DNA of 64,000 nt. Origin: a virus. The notes beneath the pieces are model-generated. The model was given only the letters and a program-made list of their open reading frames with translations. It had not been told where the DNA came from and did not search any database. Location: positions 1-64,000 of the IMG/VR virus record IMGVR_UViG_3300029455_000002, one strand, 5' to 3'. Positions within the stretch are counted from its first letter, which is position 1, and the number at the start of each line of letters is the position of its first letter. The translations under genes were made by a program, and so were the position numbers. Shown one piece after another: positions 28,475-52,687 of the stretch.

Positions 28475-28546
28475 TGGGCTATCGCCAAGCGGTAAGGCTC
28501 AGCACTTTGACTGCTGCATTCGCTGGTTCGAATCCCACTAGCCCAG
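28475..28546 (+). tRNA. tRNA-Gln (anticodon TTG) with an imperfect T-stem
   Basis: TGGGCTA-TC-GCCAAGCGGTAAGGC matches the bacterial tRNA-Gln 5' half. The anticodon loop is CTTTGAC. The T-stem GCTGG/CCCAC has 2 mismatches. Confidence 0.6.
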
Positions 28547-28592
28547 TCGGACTATATTGTTTAGCCATGATATAGTTCCCCTCCGAATTGGT

Positions 28593-28645
28593 TCCATCTA
28601 TCCCAACGGGGATGATTAAAGGGGCTTCAAATGCCCCGGATGGAT
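28593..28645 (+). ncRNA. 53-nt tRNA-like mini-structure (acceptor stem plus T-arm, no anticodon arm)
   Basis: TCCATCT pairs with GGATGGA. The T-arm is GGGGC-TTCAAAT-GCCCC. A small hairpin ATCCC-AACG-GGGAT sits inside. Confidence 0.25.
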
Positions 28646-28751
28646 TCTGCAGAACGCAGAAATCAACAGTCTCAATCCCTTTGTTGCGGCTGCGAGGGAA
28701 AGAACCGCAACAGCAGAGAGCCGTTCTTGAACTGCAACAGCCCTCTGCTCA

Positions 28752-28824
28752 GGAAACTTAGTTCAGCTGGCAGAACGGTCGGCTCATAACCGACAAGTCA
28801 CAGGTTCGAGTCCTGTAGTTTCCA
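28752..28824 (+). tRNA. tRNA with CAT anticodon (elongator Met or Ile2)
   Basis: Perfect cloverleaf: GGAAACT/AGTTTCC, D GTTC/GAAC, anticodon arm GTCGG-CTCATAA-CCGAC, T-arm ACAGG-TTCGAGT-CCTGT. Confidence 0.85.
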
Positions 28825-29134
28825 TTTCTTCCATATGCTGTCTATCCGTTTAATGGACAGAAAAAACTGCTGAATGAGTGTATGTGGATTATTTCCATGA
28901 AAGGTGTGTAACGGCACAGCCTGTTCGATGAAGATAATTCCCCGTTCGGCACAGTCTCCGAGTTAAATTGTCGTCAATATGTGCACGTTGAGGACAGGAA
29001 GTTTTCAAGAGACAAACACAGGAAGTATTTTCCAAAATCCGAAAACAACTCCGTGGGGCTGGCACGGCATAAAACAGCCTAGTGGAAAGCATAACACGAT
29101 AAACATATTGCTAACCCGGAGTTTCCGGGTTATG

Positions 29135-29206
29135 TGGAATGTGCAGCTAGTGGAAAGCTGATAGGGACGAGTAACCTAGTCTCCGGTTCGATTCCGGACG
29201 TTCCGC
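29135..29206 (+). tRNA. tRNA-like gene with an aberrant anticodon arm (pseudo-tRNA or non-canonical)
   Basis: The acceptor, D-arm (CAGC/GCTG) and T-arm (TCCGG-TTCGATT-CCGGA) fold well. The anticodon stem closes with a G:A mismatch, and the loop ACGAGTA lacks U33. Confidence 0.4.
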
Positions 29207-29324
29207 TTTAATCCGCTTAGAGTTAAGCTGTTTGCATACAAGTGGTCTATGTCTCAGGCGGATTTACGCTATGACAAAAGAGGTGAAATTCAGCCCAGAT
29301 AATGTCTGGCCGTTATAGGCGGTA

Positions 29325-29396
29325 CGGAATGTAGCTCAGTGGTAGAGCAATAGCCTTGTAAGCTATGTGTCGCAGGTTCGATTCCTACCTTTCCGA
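29325..29396 (+). tRNA. tRNA-Thr (anticodon TGT), slightly degenerate
   Basis: TA-GCTCAGTGGTAGAGC D-arm and ATAGC-CTTGTAA-GCTAT anticodon arm. One mismatch each in the acceptor stem and the T-stem. Confidence 0.6.
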
Positions 29397-35074: not shown

Positions 35075-35494
35075 ATGACCACAAGAGAATATTTAGAACA
35101 AGTTCGTGATTATAAGAGAAAAATCGAAAACAAAATTTCTGAAGAATATCAGCTCAGAATGCTGGCTACAAGTTTATCTTCTTTTTCAACCGGAGAAAAA
35201 GTTCAAACATCCGGTACAAAAGATCATGTAGGCGATACAATCGTAAAGATTGCCGATCTGCAACAAGAAATTGCTAAAGATATTTCCGAAATGTCAGATA
35301 TTCAGCAGGAAGTATCAAGCACCATTAATAGCCTTGATAATTCTCTATATTCTCAGTTGCTGCACAAAAAATATGTGGAATACAAAAGTCTTGTTACAGT
35401 AGCTGACGAAATGGGATATTCAATTCAGCACATCCGTTCTTGCCATTTGAAAGCAATTGAATCAGTCAAAAAAGTAAAAGGATTCAAAAGATAG
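35075..35494 (+). CDS. DUF1492 / sigma-70 region-4-like phage transcriptional regulator (RinA/ArpU-type)
   Basis: REYLEQV...IVKIADLQQEI...QLLHKKYVEYKSLVTVADEMGYSIQHIRSCHLKAIESV matches the DUF1492 layout. Confidence 0.6.
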   Translation: MTTREYLEQVRDYKRKIENKISEEYQLRMLATSLSSFSTGEKVQTSGTKDHVGDTIVKIADLQQEIAKDISEMSDIQQEVSSTINSLDNSLYSQLLHKKYVEYKSLVTVADEMGYSIQHIRSCHLKAIESVKKVKGFKR

Positions 35495-35607
35495 TATGCA
35501 ATCATATGGAATCATATTGATAATATATTATATAATATAAGCTGTAAAATAAGCGCTGAGGTCGAACCTTGGTGCTTTTTTCATGCAGAAAAATAGGAGG
35601 ACAGGCA
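35495..35607 (+). promoter_or_regulatory. late regulatory cassette, copy A: conserved 24-mer, GGAATC-17-TATAAT, and a promoter-proximal terminator
   Basis: 24-mer at 35495-35518, GGAATC at 35508-35513, TATAAT at 35531-35536, and a hairpin at 35551-35578 plus a T-run. Homologous to 52571-52687. Confidence 0.5.
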
Positions 35608-44121: not shown

Positions 44122-44433
44122 ATGAAGAAATTATTTATTAGTCAGCCGATGAGAGGAAAAACAGATGAGGAAATCCTTGCAACTAGAGAAAAAGCGATTA
44201 AGAGCGCAGAGAAGCAGATTGGTGAACCTGTAGAAGTAATTGATTCTTTCTTCCAGTCAGCACCAGTTGACGCAAAACCACTTTGGTATCTGGGCGAATC
44301 CCTTAAACTACTGGCAGAAGCTGATGTGGCGTTCTTTGCTAAAGGATGGGACGAAGCCAGAGGATGCAAGATTGAGAATACTTGCGCTATTGAATATGGC
44401 ATTGAGACCGTTATCGAAGATTATACAGCATAA
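44122..44433 (+). CDS. DUF4406 / nucleoside 2-deoxyribosyltransferase-like protein
   Basis: MKKLFISQPMRGKT...ADVAFFAKGWDEARGCKIE pattern. ATG follows AAAGGAG. Confidence 0.5.
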   Translation: MKKLFISQPMRGKTDEEILATREKAIKSAEKQIGEPVEVIDSFFQSAPVDAKPLWYLGESLKLLAEADVAFFAKGWDEARGCKIENTCAIEYGIETVIEDYTA

Positions 44434-44457: not shown

Positions 44458-44844
44458 ATGCTAAGACAATTTTACATGAACGGTGACCTATGGAGAGTGC
44501 AGTTTGTATCTCCGCATGACAGCGTGTTAATTGACCGTACAGGCAATAGGACGCTTGGAGTATCGGATTATTCCACCCACGTTATTTCAATCGCAAATAA
44601 CCTGTATGGAGAACTTCTGAACCGTGTATTTATTCATGAGTTAGGGCATTGTGTGATGTTCAGCTATGGTCTATTACCAGAACTTCATCGCATGGTCAAG
44701 AAACGGTATTGGGTGGACGCGGAGGAATTTGTATGCAATATTCTGGCAGATTATGGACAGTTTGTTATTGGCACGGCCAGAGATATCTTAGGAAACCAGT
44801 TCACATATGTAGCTCCCATTGGGGCAGAAAGGATGAGTGCATAG
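44458..44844 (+). CDS. zinc metallopeptidase-like protein (HExxH)
   Basis: FIHELGHCV motif. Confidence 0.55.
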   Translation: MLRQFYMNGDLWRVQFVSPHDSVLIDRTGNRTLGVSDYSTHVISIANNLYGELLNRVFIHELGHCVMFSYGLLPELHRMVKKRYWVDAEEFVCNILADYGQFVIGTARDILGNQFTYVAPIGAERMSA

Positions 44845-45087
44845 ATGGCAAAAGCAGAAAACACAATTATTTTTGATGGCATTCAGTACAAACCCGGTGA
44901 TGAATTGCCGGATTTAGGTAGTTGGGTATGTACAGATGCAAAAGGTATGGTTCGCGATTATGAGGGACTTTCAAAAGACGTGTCAAAGCTCCCGCATTAT
45001 GTACAGAGCGGTTCTTCGGCGTTATGCCTTGATACCTCTGAATTATACGAATATCACAAACCTACTGACACATGGTACAAACTATAA
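44845..45087 (+). CDS. fibre N-terminal module (separate 80-aa ORF; fused in the paralog at 49362)
   Basis: About 40 percent identical by eye to residues 1-80 of ORF 49362-50372. Confidence 0.5.
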   Translation: MAKAENTIIFDGIQYKPGDELPDLGSWVCTDAKGMVRDYEGLSKDVSKLPHYVQSGSSALCLDTSELYEYHKPTDTWYKL

Positions 45088-45100
45088 GGAGAAAAAACGC

Positions 45101-47110
45101 ATGGCATTAACGGCAAAAAAAGTATACGCAATTTTAAAACGCCAGATTTCCGATATGGAGTCAAAAATAAAAACACCTGTCATATATAAAGGAACCGTTA
45201 CGACAGCTGATTTGCTTCCACTAAATCCAAGTATCGGTGATATGTACAATATTGAACAGAAATCAATATATGGCGAAGCAGGAATGAATGTGGCATGGAA
45301 CGGCGTAGTTTGGGACACCATGGGAGCACCGATTGATATGTCACTTTATATTAAATCTGATGAATTGGCAGATTGGGTAAAACAGCAGAACAAGCCAACA
45401 TATACGGCTGAAGAAGTGGGGGCATTGCCCGCAGATACAAAGATACCAACAAAAGTCAGTGAACTAGAAAATGATTCAGAATTTCTTTCCGGAACAGATA
45501 AGACCCTGAGCGTATCTGGAAAGGCTGCGGATGCAGCAACTGTAGGCGAACAGTTAGAAAAGATAACAGAAATATTAAATAGTGCTTCAAGCATTGAAAA
45601 CGCACTTTCAAATTTCTTCGCCCTCCGCAGAACAGGAAAAGTCTACACAACCAGAATCTACAAGTATGACACATCCACCAGCCCGACAGGAGTGAAAATG
45701 AATGACAATGAAGGACTGGTGAGAAAACCGTCTACAAATACAGTGATTGGACAGGATGATTACAGGGAAATTGGCGTATTCATGCACTTTCCATGTAATT
45801 TTACCGTAGATGATAAAGGTTTTAACCATGTGACTGCACTGCAGGGACAGCCGGATTTTAAAAAGACCGGAAAAGTAGATGTGGGAGAGGTTACAATGTC
45901 CGCGTGGGTTGGCATCACAGACAATCCTGAGTATGTAGATTATCATTACTCAGACAGTCCGAACGAAGCCCTTGGCCTTAGACCAATGGGAGAGTCAATT
46001 AATCCGGACGGAACAATATCACCTTTTATGATTCATGGAAAATACGGGGCAGGAGACATTGATGGAGTGCCGTACAGCTCCGCAGGGCTGATTCTGGCAA
46101 ACGGAAGCCAGAAAGGAGGAAAACCAGTATCACATACAGGACTGATCGCATACATGAGAAAGAAAGGCTCAATGTACGTGGGGACAACAAACTGGGATCT
46201 CTTTTACAAACAGCTTATGATGATTATTTTGTACGCAACTACGAACAGCCGGAGCGTTATGACCGGATGTAATTCTTATACATCACAGGAAATGGCAACA
46301 GTTGCAGAAACCGGAGTAACAAGAGTAATTCTACCAAAAGCAAAAGCAAACAATTATATTGTTGGGTCTTATGTATCTGTCGGGGATATTGGTTCAAATA
46401 CAAATAAAGGTAGATATTACGCATACATGCACAACCTCGCATATGACGTGAAGATCTTGAAGATTGAACCGGTAGACGATACAAATTCTGCAATATATTT
46501 GGACACAGAACCATTCAACACGACATTAACGACCTGCATCTCAACAATGCCATGGCGGACCGGCTCAACCGACAGCGTGCTTGGATCAGATGGATCACCG
46601 TTCTCAAATACAGATAACAAGAATCCATTCAAGATCCAGGGAATCGAAACCGGATACGGTGCTTATGAAGTCCTCAGTAATGTATTCATGGATATTGTTA
46701 CAGATGAAGACGGAACACCAAAGAGAGACGTATACATCTGTATGGATGCGTCACTGCTTACAACGGATATGAATGCAGCAAAGACACGATACAAGAAAGT
46801 AGCGGCTCAGGTAACATACACAGCAGCATCATGGAAATACATCTCAAAATGCTTTGTTGATCCAGCACTGGGAATTATGGTACCGACGGAAGCAAAAGCT
46901 GGAAGTACAACAGGATTCTGCAATGGACTGTATACAGATTCAGGCACGAGCGGCCAAAGAGAATGGCTGTCCCTGGGCGGTCTGGACGATGGCACGTTTT
47001 GCGGCCTCTGGCTTCTGCATGCGCACTATGGCGTTGGCGATGCGTACTGGGCTATCGTCTCCGGCGTTTCGCCGAACGGCACACGGGGTGAATGGCAGGC
47101 GGCAGCCTGA
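45101..47110 (+). CDS. DGR target protein: fibre/receptor-binding-like, with a C-terminal variable (CLec-type) region
   Basis: ATG 45101 follows AAGGAG. 669 aa. The last 49 codons contain the VR, ending ...WLSLGGLDDGTFCGLWLLHAHYGVGDAYWAIVSG.... Confidence 0.8.
   Translation: MALTAKKVYAILKRQISDMESKIKTPVIYKGTVTTADLLPLNPSIGDMYNIEQKSIYGEAGMNVAWNGVVWDTMGAPIDMSLYIKSDELADWVKQQNKPTYTAEEVGALPADTKIPTKVSELENDSEFLSGTDKTLSVSGKAADAATVGEQLEKITEILNSASSIENALSNFFALRRTGKVYTTRIYKYDTSTSPTGVKMNDNEGLVRKPSTNTVIGQDDYREIGVFMHFPCNFTVDDKGFNHVTALQGQPDFKKTGKVDVGEVTMSAWVGITDNPEYVDYHYSDSPNEALGLRPMGESINPDGTISPFMIHGKYGAGDIDGVPYSSAGLILANGSQKGGKPVSHTGLIAYMRKKGSMYVGTTNWDLFYKQLMMIILYATTNSRSVMTGCNSYTSQEMATVAETGVTRVILPKAKANNYIVGSYVSVGDIGSNTNKGRYYAYMHNLAYDVKILKIEPVDDTNSAIYLDTEPFNTTLTTCISTMPWRTGSTDSVLGSDGSPFSNTDNKNPFKIQGIETGYGAYEVLSNVFMDIVTDEDGTPKRDVYICMDASLLTTDMNAAKTRYKKVAAQVTYTAASWKYISKCFVDPALGIMVPTEAKAGSTTGFCNGLYTDSGTSGQREWLSLGGLDDGTFCGLWLLHAHYGVGDAYWAIVSGVSPNGTRGEWQAAA
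46964..47064 (+). repeat. DGR variable repeat (VR)
   Basis: 101-nt gapless match to 47215-47315. All 13 mismatches are at template adenines. Confidence 0.9.
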
Positions 47111-47111
47111 C

Positions 47112-47129
47112 AGAGGGGCTGTCCCCTCT
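47112..47129 (+). other. GC-rich hairpin just after the target stop codon (DGR-associated hairpin candidate)
   Basis: AGAGGGG-CTGT-CCCCTCT: 7-bp stem, 4-nt loop. Confidence 0.5.
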
Positions 47130-47214
47130 ATGTAACTGATAACTAATCAACTTCGAAAAAGCAGAATAGCAATAAATTACGGACTTGTAACACGAGGTAG
47201 CGGTTCCTGTTCCC

Positions 47215-47315
47215 TGGCTGTCCCTGGGCAATCTGGACAATGGCACGATTTACGGCCTCTGGATTCTGAATGCGAACAATGGCGTTGGCAATGCGAACTG
47301 GAATATCGTCTCCGG
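47215..47315 (+). repeat. DGR template repeat (TR)
   Basis: Holds 22 adenines, 13 of which are substituted in the VR. In the VR frame it encodes AAT/AAC at 8 of the 11 varied codons. Confidence 0.9.
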
Positions 47316-47520
47316 ATTTTCTTGAAAATGATTTGATATTTGTGTTACATTTCGCTCCGCAGGACGGAGCCTGCAACAGCAGCGTGGGGCATCACCGAAA
47401 TTTGATTGAAGCCGAACCTTGTGATCGGGAGCATAGGGGCCTGAGACAAGGACCATGAATGCAGTTGATTCATGTGTGGGGTGAGTAGAAAAACCGAAAA
47501 CCCCTTATATCAAGAAACGA

Positions 47521-48750
47521 ATGAAACGGTATTGTAAAAACATAACATTAGATCAGAATTTTATAACCGCATGTATCTACGAATGTCTAAGCGATAAATG
47601 GAACCGTATGGATACAGCCAGATTTCTGGCAAACTATACGAATATCATTACAGCCAGGCAGATACACAGGATTATAAAAGAAAACCTTAAAGACTGGTTG
47701 CATAATTTAGTCTGCACAGCAGCGGCAGGACTGGAAGAAGAAATAAAACTTAGAAAAGTATCTTTTGATCCTATAGAGACAAGCGCAAGACTGGATGGAA
47801 ATTCAGGAAAAGTAAGAGATATAGGCGTTGAGTGCATAAAACAGCAGATATACGATTATGTAGTCACAAACGGCTTAAAAGAATTAATTGTAAGAAAAGT
47901 AGGAACTTATCAATGTGCGAGCATTCCAGGGAGAGGACAGATCTATGGAAAAGAAGCAATTGAAAATTGGATCCGCAAGAATCCGGGCAAGACCAGAGTA
48001 GCAGCAAAGGGAGATGTCCGGAAATGCTATCCATCCATCAACAGGAGAAAATTGAAAAGAATGTTAGAGAAGCAGGTCAGAAATGAGGACCTGCTTTATT
48101 TGACTTTCGTTTTAATTGACTCATTCGATCAGGGGCTGTCAATCGGATCATACTTGAGCCAATGGCTCTGTAATTATTATCTGAGTGCAGCTTATCATTA
48201 TACTGCTGAAAAGCTGTTCAAGAGGAAGAAACACCGAGACGGAACAACAGAAGAAATCAGGCTGATTAATCATGTATTGTTCTACATGGACGACTTCCTA
48301 CTGATCGGAAGCAGAAAGGCAGATGTGAGAAAAGCAATGAAACTCCTGATTAAATACATGAATGAGTATTTAGATCTGACGGTAAAATCAGACTGGAAGC
48401 TGTTCCAGATCGACTGGATAGACAAAGAGGGAAAACATCATGGAGAACCTATTGATATGATGGGATTCAAAATATATCGGGACCACACAGAGGTAAGGCG
48501 GAGCATTTTCCTGAGAGGACGCAGGACGTTTGTAAAAGCCGGGAAATATGCGGAGAAAGGAAAAGCGATACCATTAGATCTTGCGTACCGGTGCATAGCA
48601 TATTACGGATGGTTCAAACATTTCGATTCTGAATATTTCAGAGAAAAGTATAACGTAGATAAGATCTTTGAGAAAGCGAAAAGGAGGGTAAGTCGTGAAA
48701 GCAAGATTTACAGAAAAGCAGGATTCTGTAACCTGGAATGTGCTGCCTGA
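47521..48750 (+). CDS. DGR reverse transcriptase
   Basis: LFYMDDFLLIG (YxDD box), SIGSYLSQWLCNYYL (DGR-type motif 4) and IPGRG. 409 aa, immediately downstream of the TR. Confidence 0.9.
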   Translation: MKRYCKNITLDQNFITACIYECLSDKWNRMDTARFLANYTNIITARQIHRIIKENLKDWLHNLVCTAAAGLEEEIKLRKVSFDPIETSARLDGNSGKVRDIGVECIKQQIYDYVVTNGLKELIVRKVGTYQCASIPGRGQIYGKEAIENWIRKNPGKTRVAAKGDVRKCYPSINRRKLKRMLEKQVRNEDLLYLTFVLIDSFDQGLSIGSYLSQWLCNYYLSAAYHYTAEKLFKRKKHRDGTTEEIRLINHVLFYMDDFLLIGSRKADVRKAMKLLIKYMNEYLDLTVKSDWKLFQIDWIDKEGKHHGEPIDMMGFKIYRDHTEVRRSIFLRGRRTFVKAGKYAEKGKAIPLDLAYRCIAYYGWFKHFDSEYFREKYNVDKIFEKAKRRVSRESKIYRKAGFCNLECAA

Positions 48751-49036
48751 TGGAAACGTGGATGTAATGATATGTCTGAATGAAAAGACTGTTACAGAAA
48801 CTTATCCGGATACAGATCCGGAGACAGAACAGACAGTATTCGAATATGATTTTAACCAGTTCCGGGAAAGACAGGAGAAGATCTCAGAGGAAACTGTAAG
48901 AGCATCACCGGAAAAATATCTGAAATATATTCCGGAGAAAGAAAAAAGCACTGAACAGAAATTTGCAGAGCAGGCAGAACAGATCGAAATGTTGAAAGAC
49001 TGCCTGCTGGAAATGAGTGAACAGGTTTATGCGTAG
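48695..49036 (+). CDS. XkdW-like tail-fibre-region protein
   Basis: GTG follows AGGAGGG. Acidic, with a C-terminal ...IEMLKDCLLEMSEQVYA. Overlaps the RT 3' end by 56 nt. Confidence 0.4.
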   Translation: MKARFTEKQDSVTWNVLPDGNVDVMICLNEKTVTETYPDTDPETEQTVFEYDFNQFRERQEKISEETVRASPEKYLKYIPEKEKSTEQKFAEQAEQIEMLKDCLLEMSEQVYA

Positions 49037-49076
49037 AAATTTAATTATTTTATTGTTAAGCAAAGGAGACAAAGAA

Positions 49077-49223
49077 ATGATGGCGAAATTATGGGCGAGT
49101 GAAATTTTAAGCAAAGAAACTATTGAGGAAGCAAAAAAGGAATACAACAGAGTTCCACGCCTGTTAAAAGAAAAGGTAAAGAAGCTTCTCATTGACGCAG
49201 GTATGGAGGAAATTACTGAATAA
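49077..49223 (+). CDS. XkdX-like small protein
   Basis: 48 aa. ATG follows AAAGGAGA. Confidence 0.3.
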   Translation: MMAKLWASEILSKETIEEAKKEYNRVPRLLKEKVKKLLIDAGMEEITE

Positions 49224-49361
49224 ATGACGAAACTTCAGATCATAAGAGGGTTTTAGTTAAGCAATTCGCAAAATTACAAAAGAAAAGATAGAAAATCTCT
49301 CAATTCTTACAAAGGAAGAAAAAGATTATATTTTGAATTGATAAGTGAAAGGAGAACTATT

Positions 49362-50372
49362 ATGGCAGTTGCACAAAATACAGTAATCATTGATGATGTA
49401 GAATACAAGCCAGGCGAACAACTTCCGGAACTTGGCAGCATTCACCGAGTTTTCAAAGATGGTGGTAAACGTCATTATGAAGGACTTGCGAAAGATTCAG
49501 ACAAGCTTCCTCTGTACGTTGCTAACAATTCATCATGTTTTATGACCGATACAGGAGAGTATTACAAATTTGATGAGAGTAAGAAATTGTGGTATAAACC
49601 TGATAAGATCGAACAAAGCAAAGTAACACCGATTGAAGTATATGGCGTTCTTAATGGAAAAATCAAACAGGTCTCAGAGGACGTAGAGGGAATTGCAACA
49701 CCACTTTTATACAAAGGTTCAGTATCAGACATTTCACAACTTCCGTTATCTCCTAAGATTGGATGGATGTATAACATATCTGAAAAATCTATTTATGGAG
49801 AGGCAGGTATGAATGTCGCATGGACAGGAGAAATATGGGACGCTCTTGGACCGGCTATTGATATGGCACCATACTTGAGAGAGGATTCCGAGATCATAAC
49901 ATCCTTGAAAACCAAAACGGAAAATCTGGAATCTGCGAATTACACCGACAGAGGTACATTAGCTGATACTGACGCATTTCTGATCAATGACGGTACAGGA
50001 ATGAAAAAGAGTGTGCTGAGCAAGCTGTCAGACTTTGTCCTTAATAAAATCGCCGATAAAGTGTTTGCAAAGCTTCAAACGAACGACAAAACAATTCTGG
50101 GAGCGATTAATGAATTAAATAGTAAGGCTCTGATGACTTATGTTGGCAAAAAAGCAACAAATGAAGATGGTGTAATTCCCATAAATAATATAATTTCTGG
50201 AGTGTCAATAAAAAACGTTATTAATGCAAAAGCATATATTTCCGATGGAAATAAAAATATTTACTCAAGGCTATACTCGTACAACTCTTATGCTTATATA
50301 TTGGTCACTGACTACGAAGGCAATCGATTTAAAAACACAGAATTAAATGTTGTAGTGCTTTATACAAAATAG
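49362..50372 (+). CDS. fibre paralog without a VR
   Basis: The N-terminal ~190 aa align with 44845-45087 plus the first ~90 aa of the DGR target (for example SIYGEAGMNVAW in both). The C-terminus is unrelated. Confidence 0.6.
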   Translation: MAVAQNTVIIDDVEYKPGEQLPELGSIHRVFKDGGKRHYEGLAKDSDKLPLYVANNSSCFMTDTGEYYKFDESKKLWYKPDKIEQSKVTPIEVYGVLNGKIKQVSEDVEGIATPLLYKGSVSDISQLPLSPKIGWMYNISEKSIYGEAGMNVAWTGEIWDALGPAIDMAPYLREDSEIITSLKTKTENLESANYTDRGTLADTDAFLINDGTGMKKSVLSKLSDFVLNKIADKVFAKLQTNDKTILGAINELNSKALMTYVGKKATNEDGVIPINNIISGVSIKNVINAKAYISDGNKNIYSRLYSYNSYAYILVTDYEGNRFKNTELNVVVLYTK

Positions 50373-50650
50373 TAACTGCCTGGTATCCGTCGATGCTGAT
50401 TCAGAGAATATAAATTTGAGGATCAAAAAAATTTACTATTGCCATTTAATTCATTAAAATTCTTAAAACTTTTGTAAAAAGTTCTACCTGTTATAATGAA
50501 ACCGTGCTATAATTTCTATAACAGAATACAAAAAAAGAGGAGCTGGACTCCCGTCTACCAAACAAAAAGTCCAACTCCAAGCACCACAAAGGGTACAGGT
50601 ATATTATAACACGGTACCCTCCCTTTGTGAACCCAAAAGGAGGGTTTTTT

Positions 50651-51637
50651 ATGGAAAATTTCGCAACAGAGTTTATGACCAAGTTAGACGGAAAGTTATC
50701 CCCAGAACAGATGAAGACAGTTCTGGCAGAATTGGAAATGTTTTCTGCAAATTTTGATATTGAGAAAAAGCAGACAAACATTGTCCCGTATCAGGGCTGT
50801 GTACCAGAGTGCTATAAGGTTTACCTTGTCTCTAAAAAGATAGAGGGAATGTCGCCGCAGTCTCTAGTGACTTATAAATGTAATCTTGATGATTTCTTTC
50901 GTTCAGTCAATAAGCCACTGGCCCAGATCACTACAAACGATATAAGGCTGTACTTGTATAGCTTGTCAGAAAGAAATACGAATCGAACGATTGACGGGAA
51001 GAGGCTTATCATTCATACTTTCTTCGACTGGTGCGTAAAAGAGGAGTATCTTGCAAAGAATCCGTGCAGTCGAATTAATCCGATTAAATTCGAGGTAAAG
51101 CCGAGGGAGCCGCTTGACGATATTGAGTTAGAATTGGTCAGAGATGCTTGCAAAGATTACCGTGAACGTGCGATTATCGAACTTTTTTATAGCACCGGTT
51201 GCCGTGTATCAGAGATGGTGGTCCTGAAGAAGTCAGATATTGACTTTCAGACTAAAGAAGTGCATCTATTTGGAAAGGGAAGTAAGCATCGCATATCTTA
51301 TATCAACGCTAGGGCAGAAGTGGCATTGAAAAAGTACTGGTTTACTAGAGATGACTGTTGCGACAGTGCAATAGCAACTATTCACAAACCGTACAGAGGA
51401 GTCACAAAGACACAACTGGAACAGATTGTAAGAAAAATTGGGGAAAGGTCGGAAATCGGAAGAAACTTATACCCACACCTTATCCGCCATACAACTGCCA
51501 GCTCAGCTCTTGAAAGAGGTATGAATGTTACGGACCTGCAAAAGATGCTGGGACACGAGAAACTTGATACAACTATGATTTATGCAAAGGTTAATCAAGA
51601 GTCGGTCAGATACAATCATCATAAATACGTCATTTAA
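50651..51637 (+). CDS. XerC/XerD-like tyrosine recombinase
   Basis: SAM-like N-domain, then ...TGCRVSE..., HLIRHTTAS and LGHEKLDTTMIYAKV (R, HxxR, H, Y). Confidence 0.85.
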   Translation: MENFATEFMTKLDGKLSPEQMKTVLAELEMFSANFDIEKKQTNIVPYQGCVPECYKVYLVSKKIEGMSPQSLVTYKCNLDDFFRSVNKPLAQITTNDIRLYLYSLSERNTNRTIDGKRLIIHTFFDWCVKEEYLAKNPCSRINPIKFEVKPREPLDDIELELVRDACKDYRERAIIELFYSTGCRVSEMVVLKKSDIDFQTKEVHLFGKGSKHRISYINARAEVALKKYWFTRDDCCDSAIATIHKPYRGVTKTQLEQIVRKIGERSEIGRNLYPHLIRHTTASSALERGMNVTDLQKMLGHEKLDTTMIYAKVNQESVRYNHHKYVI

Positions 51638-52554: not shown

Positions 52555-52570
52555 AGAAATATGAATATGC

Positions 52571-52687
52571 TATGCAATCATATGGAATCATATTCATTAA
52601 AGATGATATACTGTAACATATAAAAGCATCTGTCAAAACGACAGGTGCTTTTTTCATGCAAAAAACATAGAAAAGGAGAATGTAAGC
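52571..52687 (+). promoter_or_regulatory. late regulatory cassette, copy B
   Basis: Identical 24-mer at 52571-52594, GGAATC at 52584-52589, TATACT at 52607-52612, and hairpin AAGCATCTGTC-AAAAC-GACAGGTGCTT at 52624-52650 plus a T-run. Confidence 0.5.

Follow-up and report, generated by a model that had tools for sequence, protein, structure and literature searches.

A diversity-generating retroelement with no recognised accessory gene at a tail-fibre locus of a gut phage genome

Can a fibre-like gene, a non-coding copy of its 3' end and a neighbouring reverse transcriptase (RT) make up a working diversity-generating retroelement (DGR) when no gene for the accessory protein Avd is found beside them? 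This question is raised by a locus in a 64,000-nt stretch of viral DNA (positions 1 to 64,000 of IMG/VR record IMGVR_UViG_3300029455_000002; hereafter the window), in which an earlier, sequence-only reading had placed a complete DGR at 44845-48750. The elements lie on the plus strand in the order target gene (45101-47110), template repeat (TR; 47215-47315) and RT open reading frame (ORF; 47521-48750), with the variable repeat (VR; 46964-47064) near the 3' end of the target gene, and this order is the same in eight lineages. The end of the range proposed earlier and the elements named within it stand, whereas its start at 44845 belongs to a separate 80-aa ORF and the target begins only at 45101. 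We conclude that the element is very probably an accessory-free target-TR-RT DGR of a tailed phage of Lachnospiraceae-type gut bacteria. DGRs have been catalogued by the tens of thousands, with the tips of gut-phage fibres as their commonest targets, and avd is present in 74% of DGRs. As a DGR this element is ordinary; it goes beyond the ordinary only in having no Avd and in the well-supported architecture of its RNA.

VR and TR form an ungapped direct repeat of 101 nt at an offset of 251, which is the largest repeat within the window. The two copies differ at 13 positions, every one of them opposite a TR adenine (13 of the 22 TR adenines are changed, six to G, four to C and three to T), and there is no change at any C, G or T of the TR; the probability that 13 random mismatches would all fall on the 22 adenines is 6.1e-11. 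The VR encodes residues 622-655 of the 669-aa target protein. In the frame of ORF 45101-47110, 11 codons differ between the repeats, and eight of these are the AAT or AAC (AAY) codons of the TR, which read G, D, H, H, Y, D, Y and A in the VR (residues 627, 630, 640, 642, 643, 647, 649 and 651). The repeat alignment, its adenine specificity and the codon pattern described in the sequence-only reading were therefore all recovered on re-alignment. A fourteenth difference immediately beyond the repeats (C/A at 47065/47316) is invariant in all relatives and is thus taken as the limit of homology and not as a mutagenised site. When every TR adenine was replaced by N, the resulting pattern matched the VR and TR sites only, with no match expected by chance, indicating that the element has one VR and no remote target within the window; this search found no second VR in the 64 kb. 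All possible A>N outcomes of the TR are free of stop codons, allowing ~1e13 protein variants.

Does the same specificity hold beyond this one pair of repeats? A search that fixed the non-A bases of the repeat retrieved 27 further elements from viral contigs in which both repeats were present. Together with the window these 28 elements contain 27 distinct VRs versus 6 distinct TRs, and 325 of their 335 VR-TR mismatches fall on TR adenines. Because this search fixed the non-A bases, the test was repeated on loci retrieved through the RT protein, which yielded 50 distinct sequences aligned over 1100 nt. Mean entropy was 1.65 bits at VR columns opposite a TR adenine and 0.088 bits at the other VR columns, compared with 0.166 bits in the rest of the gene and 0.074 bits in the spacer, and the 15 most variable of the 1100 columns were all TR-adenine positions. 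The target-TR-RT layout and adenine specificity occur together in seven of the eight lineages, whose RTs share 37-89% identity and which include Blautia, Hespellia, Lachnospiraceae and other Bacillota. The nearest relative of the window is identical (100%) in RT, TR, spacer and downstream genes, without a single difference over 47072-49867, and its VR differs from that of the window at 13 positions, all of them adenine-templated. No other substitution in 2.8 kb is thus as recent as the diversification of the VR, and this pattern of sequence change indicates that the DGR is almost certainly active in its lineage.

These data also bear on an explanation that involves no retro-mutagenesis at all, namely that a fragment of the fibre gene was duplicated and that the copy within the gene has since evolved rapidly through gene conversion or diversifying selection. 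Such selection is common at receptor-binding tips, and the same gene carries a recombination patch of 20 substitutions (46405-46826). Neither observation reaches the central point, since selection cannot restrict change to the adenines of a second, non-coding copy (p ~6e-11 in the window; 325 of 335 in the relatives). Moreover, a DGR-type RT lies 205 nt from the template, the TR is set within a conserved structured RNA and the pattern is found again where RT identity falls to only 37%. We consider this explanation effectively refuted, with a residual likelihood that is negligible.

Two relatives depart from the common pattern. The TR of L034 (IMGVR_UViG_3300045988_124014; 10246-10346) is without five adenines (it reads GG..T..TT at TR positions 76, 77, 83, 89 and 90), and its 3' part is identical to the VR of the same element; it resembles the product of VR-to-TR gene conversion or of recombination between the repeats, and those positions would thereby be frozen. 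In L042, from a Sedimentibacter metagenome-assembled genome (5471-5811), only half of the 16 VR-TR mismatches are at A, with five at G and three at C, and this element may be a decaying or non-canonical DGR.

The enzyme that the element would depend on is encoded 205 nt downstream of the TR. The 409-aa product of ORF 47521-48750 contains LFYMDDFLLIG and SIGSYLSQWLCNYY, as had been noticed from the letters alone, and matches Pfam RVT_1 (E 3e-8) and, far more strongly, the PHROG reverse-transcriptase family phrog_1423 (E 2.7e-70). Its sole sequence match among chains of the Protein Data Bank (PDB) is bRT of Bordetella phage BPP-1 (8ub7; E 3e-6), and in the alignment of the two enzymes IGSYLSQ in motif 4 stands opposite IGSLTSQ and the catalytic YMDD opposite YMDD. 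Both motifs are invariant across the eight lineages down to 37% RT identity. RT relatives at 37-89% identity, found in genomes of Blautia, Hespellia, Lachnospiraceae, Sedimentibacter and Bacilli, also keep a conserved N-terminal region of ~95 aa. By its motifs ([I/L/V]GxxxSQ and YxDD) and its closest match, bRT, the RT reads as intact and of the DGR type. Assignment to the group II intron RT/maturases was rejected, since the match to TIGR04416 (E 5e-11) reaches 42 bits against a family cut-off of 300 bits and there is no match to an intron family in Rfam. The likeness amounts to a weak match of the RT palm and finger motifs; unlike the intron proteins, the RT here has no maturase or endonuclease domain and carries SQ in place of the intron-type motif.

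What is diversified appears to be the tip of a phage fibre. The target ORF, which is preceded by a GGAG ribosome-binding site, matches phrog_17147 (E 9e-127) and had been called fibre-like with the VR at its C-terminal end, a placement that the VR at residues 622-655 confirms. No Pfam match was obtained for the 669-aa protein (DUF1566 and FGE-sulfatase were not detected). It has more than 7000 homologues, one of which is named 'tail collar fiber protein' and one of which is in a Ruminococcus genome. Residues 1-160 constitute an N-terminal attachment region, and residues 160-669 a C-terminal module that is conserved and belongs to the DGR variable-protein (C-type-lectin/FGE-like) type; in a search of 1.8 billion cluster representatives, this ~500-aa module was common to 853 clusters at 50% identity with varied N-termini. 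An AlphaFold (AF2) model of residues 160-669, built from 38 diverse homologues, has a predicted local distance difference test score (pLDDT) of 94.8 and a predicted template modelling score (pTM) of 0.93. The best PDB match of the modelled module in Foldseek is TaqVP, the DGR variable protein of Thermus aquaticus (5vf4; E 1.3e-6, probability 1.0), although the global superposition is loose (template modelling (TM) score 0.35-0.48) and sequence identity is 12-13%; Mtd (1yu0) is among the weak matches (E 0.38). Among the viral models of BFVD, 40 proteins match at E<1e-3, mostly tail collar fibre proteins and several from crAss-like phages, and the matches include one labelled as a Treponema variable protein (TvpA-like) and one as sulfatase-modifying-factor-like. 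Because of these structural matches, the model supports the target as a phage fibre or receptor-binding protein with a C-type-lectin-like variable-protein fold around the VR, in keeping with the fold that had been suggested for it. Elsewhere in the gene, the patch at 46405-46826 comprises 20 substitutions in ~420 nt relative to the otherwise identical relative L046, and resembles a recombination tract unconnected with the DGR.

If the target, template and enzyme are in place, is anything else needed? By gene order the element matches a known accessory-free architecture, A1 (target-TR-RT). Only 104 nt separate the target stop codon from the TR, 205 nt separate the TR from the RT, and there is no ORF in either gap in any of the eight lineages. 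An accessory gene is not obligatory for DGRs, since architecture A, which lacks one, accounts for 29% of a curated DGR set, and RT Lineage 3 of that set lacks avd (PMC5758913). The earlier description of the DGR as complete is therefore apt in the accessory-free sense, with target, TR and RT all present, and fails in the sense that no Avd or HRDC gene was found in the window.

The TR is embedded in a conserved structured RNA of ~335 nt (47186-47520) comprising two long-range duplexes, A and B, and five hairpins, the hairpins lying in the spacer between TR and RT (47316-47520). Duplex A brackets the TR: its 5' strand (47186-47196, TGTAACACGAG), 19-29 nt upstream of the TR, pairs with 47339-47349 (TTTGTGTTACA), 24-34 nt downstream of it. 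Close relatives show compensatory changes (TGTAACAC/GTGTTACA, TGTAGCGC/GCGCTACA and TACAACGC/GCGTTGTA), and in distant lineages the same sites hold unrelated yet complementary segments of 8-12 bp; the pairing score is 22.9 for matched partners versus 15.6 +/- 2.9 for swapped partners. Duplex B joins 47318-47325 (TTTCTTGA), directly 3' of the TR-VR homology, to 47510-47517 (TCAAGAAA), which ends 3 nt before the RT start codon. Its TTC and GAAA ends are invariant and its interior covaries in 11 lineages, to an extent reached by 1 in 5000 shuffles of the partners.

The spacer hairpins were predicted with RNAalifold on a subset of 15 spacers, because a run on all 20, in which distant sequences were misaligned, gave only three helices. 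They pair 47354-59 with 47365-70 (hairpin 1), 47371-74 with 47379-82 (hairpin 2), 47417-23 with 47445-51 and, inside these, 47426-29 with 47440-43 (hairpin 3), 47454-60 with 47468-74 (hairpin 4) and 47478-82 with 47500-04 (hairpin 5). The 17-nt loop of the last hairpin (GAGTAGAAAAACCGAAA; 47483-47499) is nearly invariant down to 37% RT identity. Pairing is kept in 97.2% of the alignment cells covered by the 38 predicted pairs, and compensatory change on both sides was seen in 17 pairs, compared with 9.5 +/- 1.6 in shuffled alignments (0 of 500 reached this number) and 3-4 in slid controls. No Rfam family matches the structured RNA. Two further pairings were discarded. The closing helix CGTT/AACG proposed by RNAalifold (47343-46 x 47516-19) shows mispairs and no covariation, and duplexes A and B are used instead; L039 does not keep the complementarity between a spacer segment and the TR 3' end through the first hairpin (CGGAG/CTCCG). 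At the TR 3' end, 47298-47325 contains a possible 5-bp hairpin (CTGGA...TCCGG) followed by ATTTTCTT, scored as terminator-like by a scan, and since it overlaps duplex B, alternative folds of the RNA are possible.

The arrangement recalls that of the BPP-1 DGR RNA, in which cDNA synthesis is halted by a duplex of sequences flanking the TR on both sides and primed by the 2'-OH of an adenosine that a second duplex, formed by the TR 3' end with a spacer strand, presents (bioRxiv 10.1101/2023.10.23.563531; PMC12875486). By this analogy, duplex A would be the counterpart of the BPP-1 'cPRT stop' duplex. The published survey of such RNA elements covered only 278 DGRs with Avd homologues (bioRxiv 10.1101/2023.10.23.563531; PMC12875486), to which an avd-less lineage with a BPP-1-like RNA adds modestly.

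On the DNA side, candidate target-site elements follow the variable adenines. The region 47055-47090 may act as the initiation of mutagenic homing (IMH) sequence, again by analogy with BPP-1 (PMC5758913); it begins with 10 nt of invariant 3' homology (TCGTCTCCGG; 47055-47064) and continues into a G+C-rich flank. Beyond it are two hairpins in tandem, one spanning the stop codon (47096-47109; CAGGC-GGCA-GCCTG) and the other a G+C-rich inverted repeat (47112-47129; AGAGGGG-CTGT-CCCCTCT), the stem of which is kept while its loop varies in close relatives. The stop-codon hairpin covaries (CAGGC/GCCTG, TTGGC/GCCAA and TTGTCC/GGACAA), both hairpins are present in all eight diverged lineages, and the DNA fold has a z-score of -3.3. 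A G+C-rich inverted repeat lies downstream of the VR in about a third of DGRs, and the tandem hairpins are a candidate DGR target-site stem-loop or cruciform. There is no U-tract behind 47096-47129 and a terminator scan made no call there; the hairpins may also serve as a weak terminator. A further hairpin at the VR edge (CGGCG-TTT-CGCCG; 47061-47073) was set aside as specific to the window, all relatives having A at 47071.

How, then, might the element work? By analogy with BPP-1, a transcript of 47186-47520, probably running on into the RT ORF, would bind the RT, and cDNA synthesis would be primed in cis from an adenosine of the GAAA at 47514-47517. Synthesis would begin at the TR 3' edge (~47317), misincorporate at the 22 adenines and halt at the duplex that brackets the TR; a first templated base at ~47317 would agree with the end of homology seen on the 3' side, at 47315/47316. 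The cDNA would then replace the VR by way of the invariant TCGTCTCCGG (3') and TGGCTGTCCCTGGGC (5') homologies, aided by the hairpins downstream of the VR. As a result, up to 14 residues (eight of them from AAY codons) of the receptor-binding tip could be recoded, drawing on the ~1e13 stop-free variants, and we propose that recoding of this tip changes the host range. In the absence of Avd, the larger RNA and an RT whose N- and C-termini are somewhat longer would be enough, or some unrecognised factor would help. In a more novel version of the first option, which is possible but less likely than not, the enlarged, highly conserved RNA of this widespread avd-less lineage of Bacillota phages (the TR between two long-range duplexes, the five hairpins and the loop GAGTAGAAAAACCGAAA) and the longer RT termini would substitute for Avd in a two-component, RT-plus-RNA system of mutagenic retrohoming, with the priming adenosine 4-7 nt upstream of the RT start codon. 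One RNA molecule would then serve both as the mRNA of the RT and as the RNA on which it acts in cis.

A number of observations weigh against an accessory-free, active DGR that works in this way. A set of 58 small ORFs of the window matched 35 Pfam families, and the 25 of these that were listed include neither Avd (PF05635) nor HRDC (unlisted matches have E >0.004), and the BPP-1 Avd, taken from the annotated genome, found nothing among 761 six-frame segments of the window (best E 0.52). The RT start codon in the window has no clear Shine-Dalgarno sequence. The homology shared after the last variable adenine is limited to the 10 nt of TCGTCTCCGG, leaving the IMH poorly defined, and the G+C-rich VR flank bears only a weak likeness (TTTC and GAA are shared) to the A+T-rich TR flank, the candidate IMH* (47306-47341). 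The G+C-rich hairpin sits 47 nt past the VR end, and in L014 (IMGVR_UViG_3300045988_068354) it is removed by a 61-nt deletion (~10317-10409), yet the VR of that element differs from its TR at seven adenines, so that the hairpin is dispensable or was lost only recently. The parts played by duplexes A and B, like the site of priming, are assigned by analogy. Activity of the window's own copy, which we consider probable, is inferred from near-isogenic relatives. Furthermore, the cassette seems to be lost fairly often, as judged from its remnants or absence in L170, L188, L194 and L197-L203, and Avd is essential in BPP-1 (PMC12875486).

The losses deserve closer attention because they suggest that the window might hold a DGR by descent that is now inactive, its VR being the frozen product of past diversification. 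Between the fibre gene and a 113-aa ORF, TR, spacer and RT together form a ~1.6-kb cassette, which some relatives keep, others have in decayed form and others lack, and this distribution indicates a cassette that is gained or lost as one unit. RT remnants of 99-185 aa lie beside related fibre genes in L170, L188 and L194, and the related fibre genes of L197, L198, L199 and L203 are without the TR-RT cassette and are followed directly by the 113-aa ORF. The decayed and RT-less relatives, the missing adenines of the L034 TR, the mixed mismatches of L042 (8 A, 5 G, 3 C), the failure to find Avd and the weak ribosome-binding site of the RT could all be accommodated by an inactive copy. However, in the window the RT is full length with all invariant motifs, the TR, spacer RNA and both duplexes are intact, and a relative with a 100% identical RT, TR and spacer has a VR that differs at 13 adenine sites. 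Inactivity of the window's copy is therefore improbable.

Harder to set aside is an active DGR that needs a protein cofactor of a kind that we did not recognise, such as an Avd analogue encoded by the phage or its host, or the 113-aa ORF, so that RT and RNA would be insufficient. The requirement for Avd in BPP-1 (PMC12875486) speaks for such a cofactor, and the window covers 64 kb of a genome of ~78 kb. The 113-aa ORF (48695-49036, plus strand) overlaps the RT 3' end and follows the RT in all eight lineages; it has no Pfam or PHROG match. It is acidic, with 26 D+E versus 14 K+R, whereas Avd proteins are basic, with an average pI of 9.5 (PMC5758913), and it stands directly behind the RT-less target homologues in L197, L198, L199 and L203. 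On these two grounds it was ruled out as a substitute for Avd, and because it also follows RT-less fibre genes it belongs with the fibre module as a conserved neighbour that is not DGR-specific; its product is, to judge from this context, probably a fibre-associated protein. In addition, no lineage has an ORF between target, TR and RT, and Wu et al., who searched genomes with accessory-free DGRs by profile, detected no distant avd in them (PMC5758913). We regard dependence on an unrecognised cofactor as rather unlikely, and retain the accessory-free target-TR-RT element as the preferred reading.

Read in this way, the element is a clean and abundant natural example of the less-studied, Avd-independent class of DGRs, and, with dozens of near-isogenic genomes that carry different VRs, its lineage is a good model for Avd-independent retrohoming. 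The coordinates of the RNA map (duplex A, duplex B with its GAAA and the invariant loop) make it testable how DGRs prime and terminate cDNA without Avd, and could help in designing a minimal diversification tool of two parts. The element also marks the receptor-binding tip of a common family of Lachnospiraceae phages.

The surroundings of the element are those of a tailed-phage genome, with genes for a large terminase (33337), portal (35569), major head protein (38839) and tape measure (55566), as well as two integrases, a Rha-type regulator and three tRNAs (Gln-TTG, Met-CAT and Thr-TGT; 28475-29396). No close DNA match of the window was found in the GenBank phage collection. A homologue search with a diverse profile yielded nothing outside the window's own near-identical family. 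In Blautia and Hespellia genomes, relatives carry the fibre-DGR block in its usual place, before the lysis genes, which points towards Lachnospiraceae hosts. The 80-aa ORF upstream of the target (44845-45087, plus strand) is absent from 767-aa variants of the target and has no Pfam or PHROG match; it is 48% identical over 79 aa (BLASTP E 2e-23) to the N-terminus of ORF 49338-50372, of which it is a paralogue, and is a fibre-module neighbour rather than a DGR component. That second fibre-like ORF (344 aa) is a fusion-type paralogue, residues 9-87 matching the 80-aa ORF (48%) and residues 96-183 the target N-terminus (51%), so that two modules joined here are split into two genes (modules at 44845-45087 and 45101-45360) upstream of the DGR. 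From ~50131 onward it diverges sharply from the otherwise near-identical L046, which suggests that its fibre-tip module was swapped by recombination.

The fibre block is immediately preceded by two moron-like ORFs that lie between it and the head module, one resembling nucleoside 2-deoxyribosyltransferases (44122-44433; phrog_355, E 9e-16) and the other encoding a 128-aa protein with a HELGH zinc-peptidase-like motif (44458-44844; phrog_1233). The two tyrosine-integrase genes are at 50627-51637 and 17315-18595; many related IMG/VR contigs (33-41 kb) end at the equivalent of ~51.4-51.7 kb, just past the second integrase, and, in an unusual order, the block of fibre, DGR, integrase and regulator genes follows the head genes (33-40 kb) and precedes the tape measure (55.6 kb). 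A prophage end or attachment site, tandem elements or the insertion of a module may lie behind the integrase pair and the block order. A 62-nt direct repeat (35488-35549 and 52564-52625; 79% identical, core TATGCAATCATATGGAATCATATT) precedes the portal and Rha-like regulator genes and may be a shared promoter or operator.

Of the known systems, the prototype DGR of BPP-1 (mtd-avd-TR-brt) offers the fullest comparison. The two elements share adenine-specific transfer from TR to VR, a VR at the 3' end of a tail-fibre gene whose product has a C-type-lectin-type fold and an RT with the [I/L]GxxxSQ motif. They also share a non-coding spacer between TR and RT, a duplex joining sequences upstream and downstream of the TR, a duplex of the TR 3' edge with an adenosine-rich spacer strand and a G+C-rich inverted repeat downstream of the VR, which in BPP-1 enhances homing. 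In BPP-1, however, avd sits between target and TR, where the window has 104 nt and no avd; the spacer is 144 nt rather than 205 nt with five hairpins; and the presumed primer strand lies ~50 nt into the spacer rather than at its 3' end, ~4 nt before the RT start. The BPP-1 TR is longer (134 nt versus 101 nt) and its RT shorter (328 aa versus 409 aa), and the window differs further in its short, poorly defined IMH and its Gram-positive Bacillota host.

Closer in layout is architecture A1 with the avd-less Lineage 3 (PMC5758913), which has the same target-TR-RT order, no avd or HRDC and, by implication, Avd-independent mutagenic homing. Lineage 3A was reported only from Bacteroides and relatives (PMC5758913), whereas the lineage of the window occurs in Lachnospiraceae and other Bacillota, and its conserved RNA architecture is not described by Wu et al. 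2018 (PMC5758913). Among variable proteins, TaqVP (5vf4), Mtd (1yu0) and TvpA resemble the target in having their variable residues within the last 50 residues, and differ from it in that the 510-aa module of the target is larger and has a phage fibre attachment region N-terminal to it. Finally, the DGRs of human-gut phages (hankyphage, the Bacteroides uniformis siphophages and the crAss-like phage LMMB) are likewise phage-borne and diversify tail-fibre tips, and fibres of crAss-like phages are among the structural neighbours of the target; these DGRs differ from the present one in host phylum and in RT lineage.

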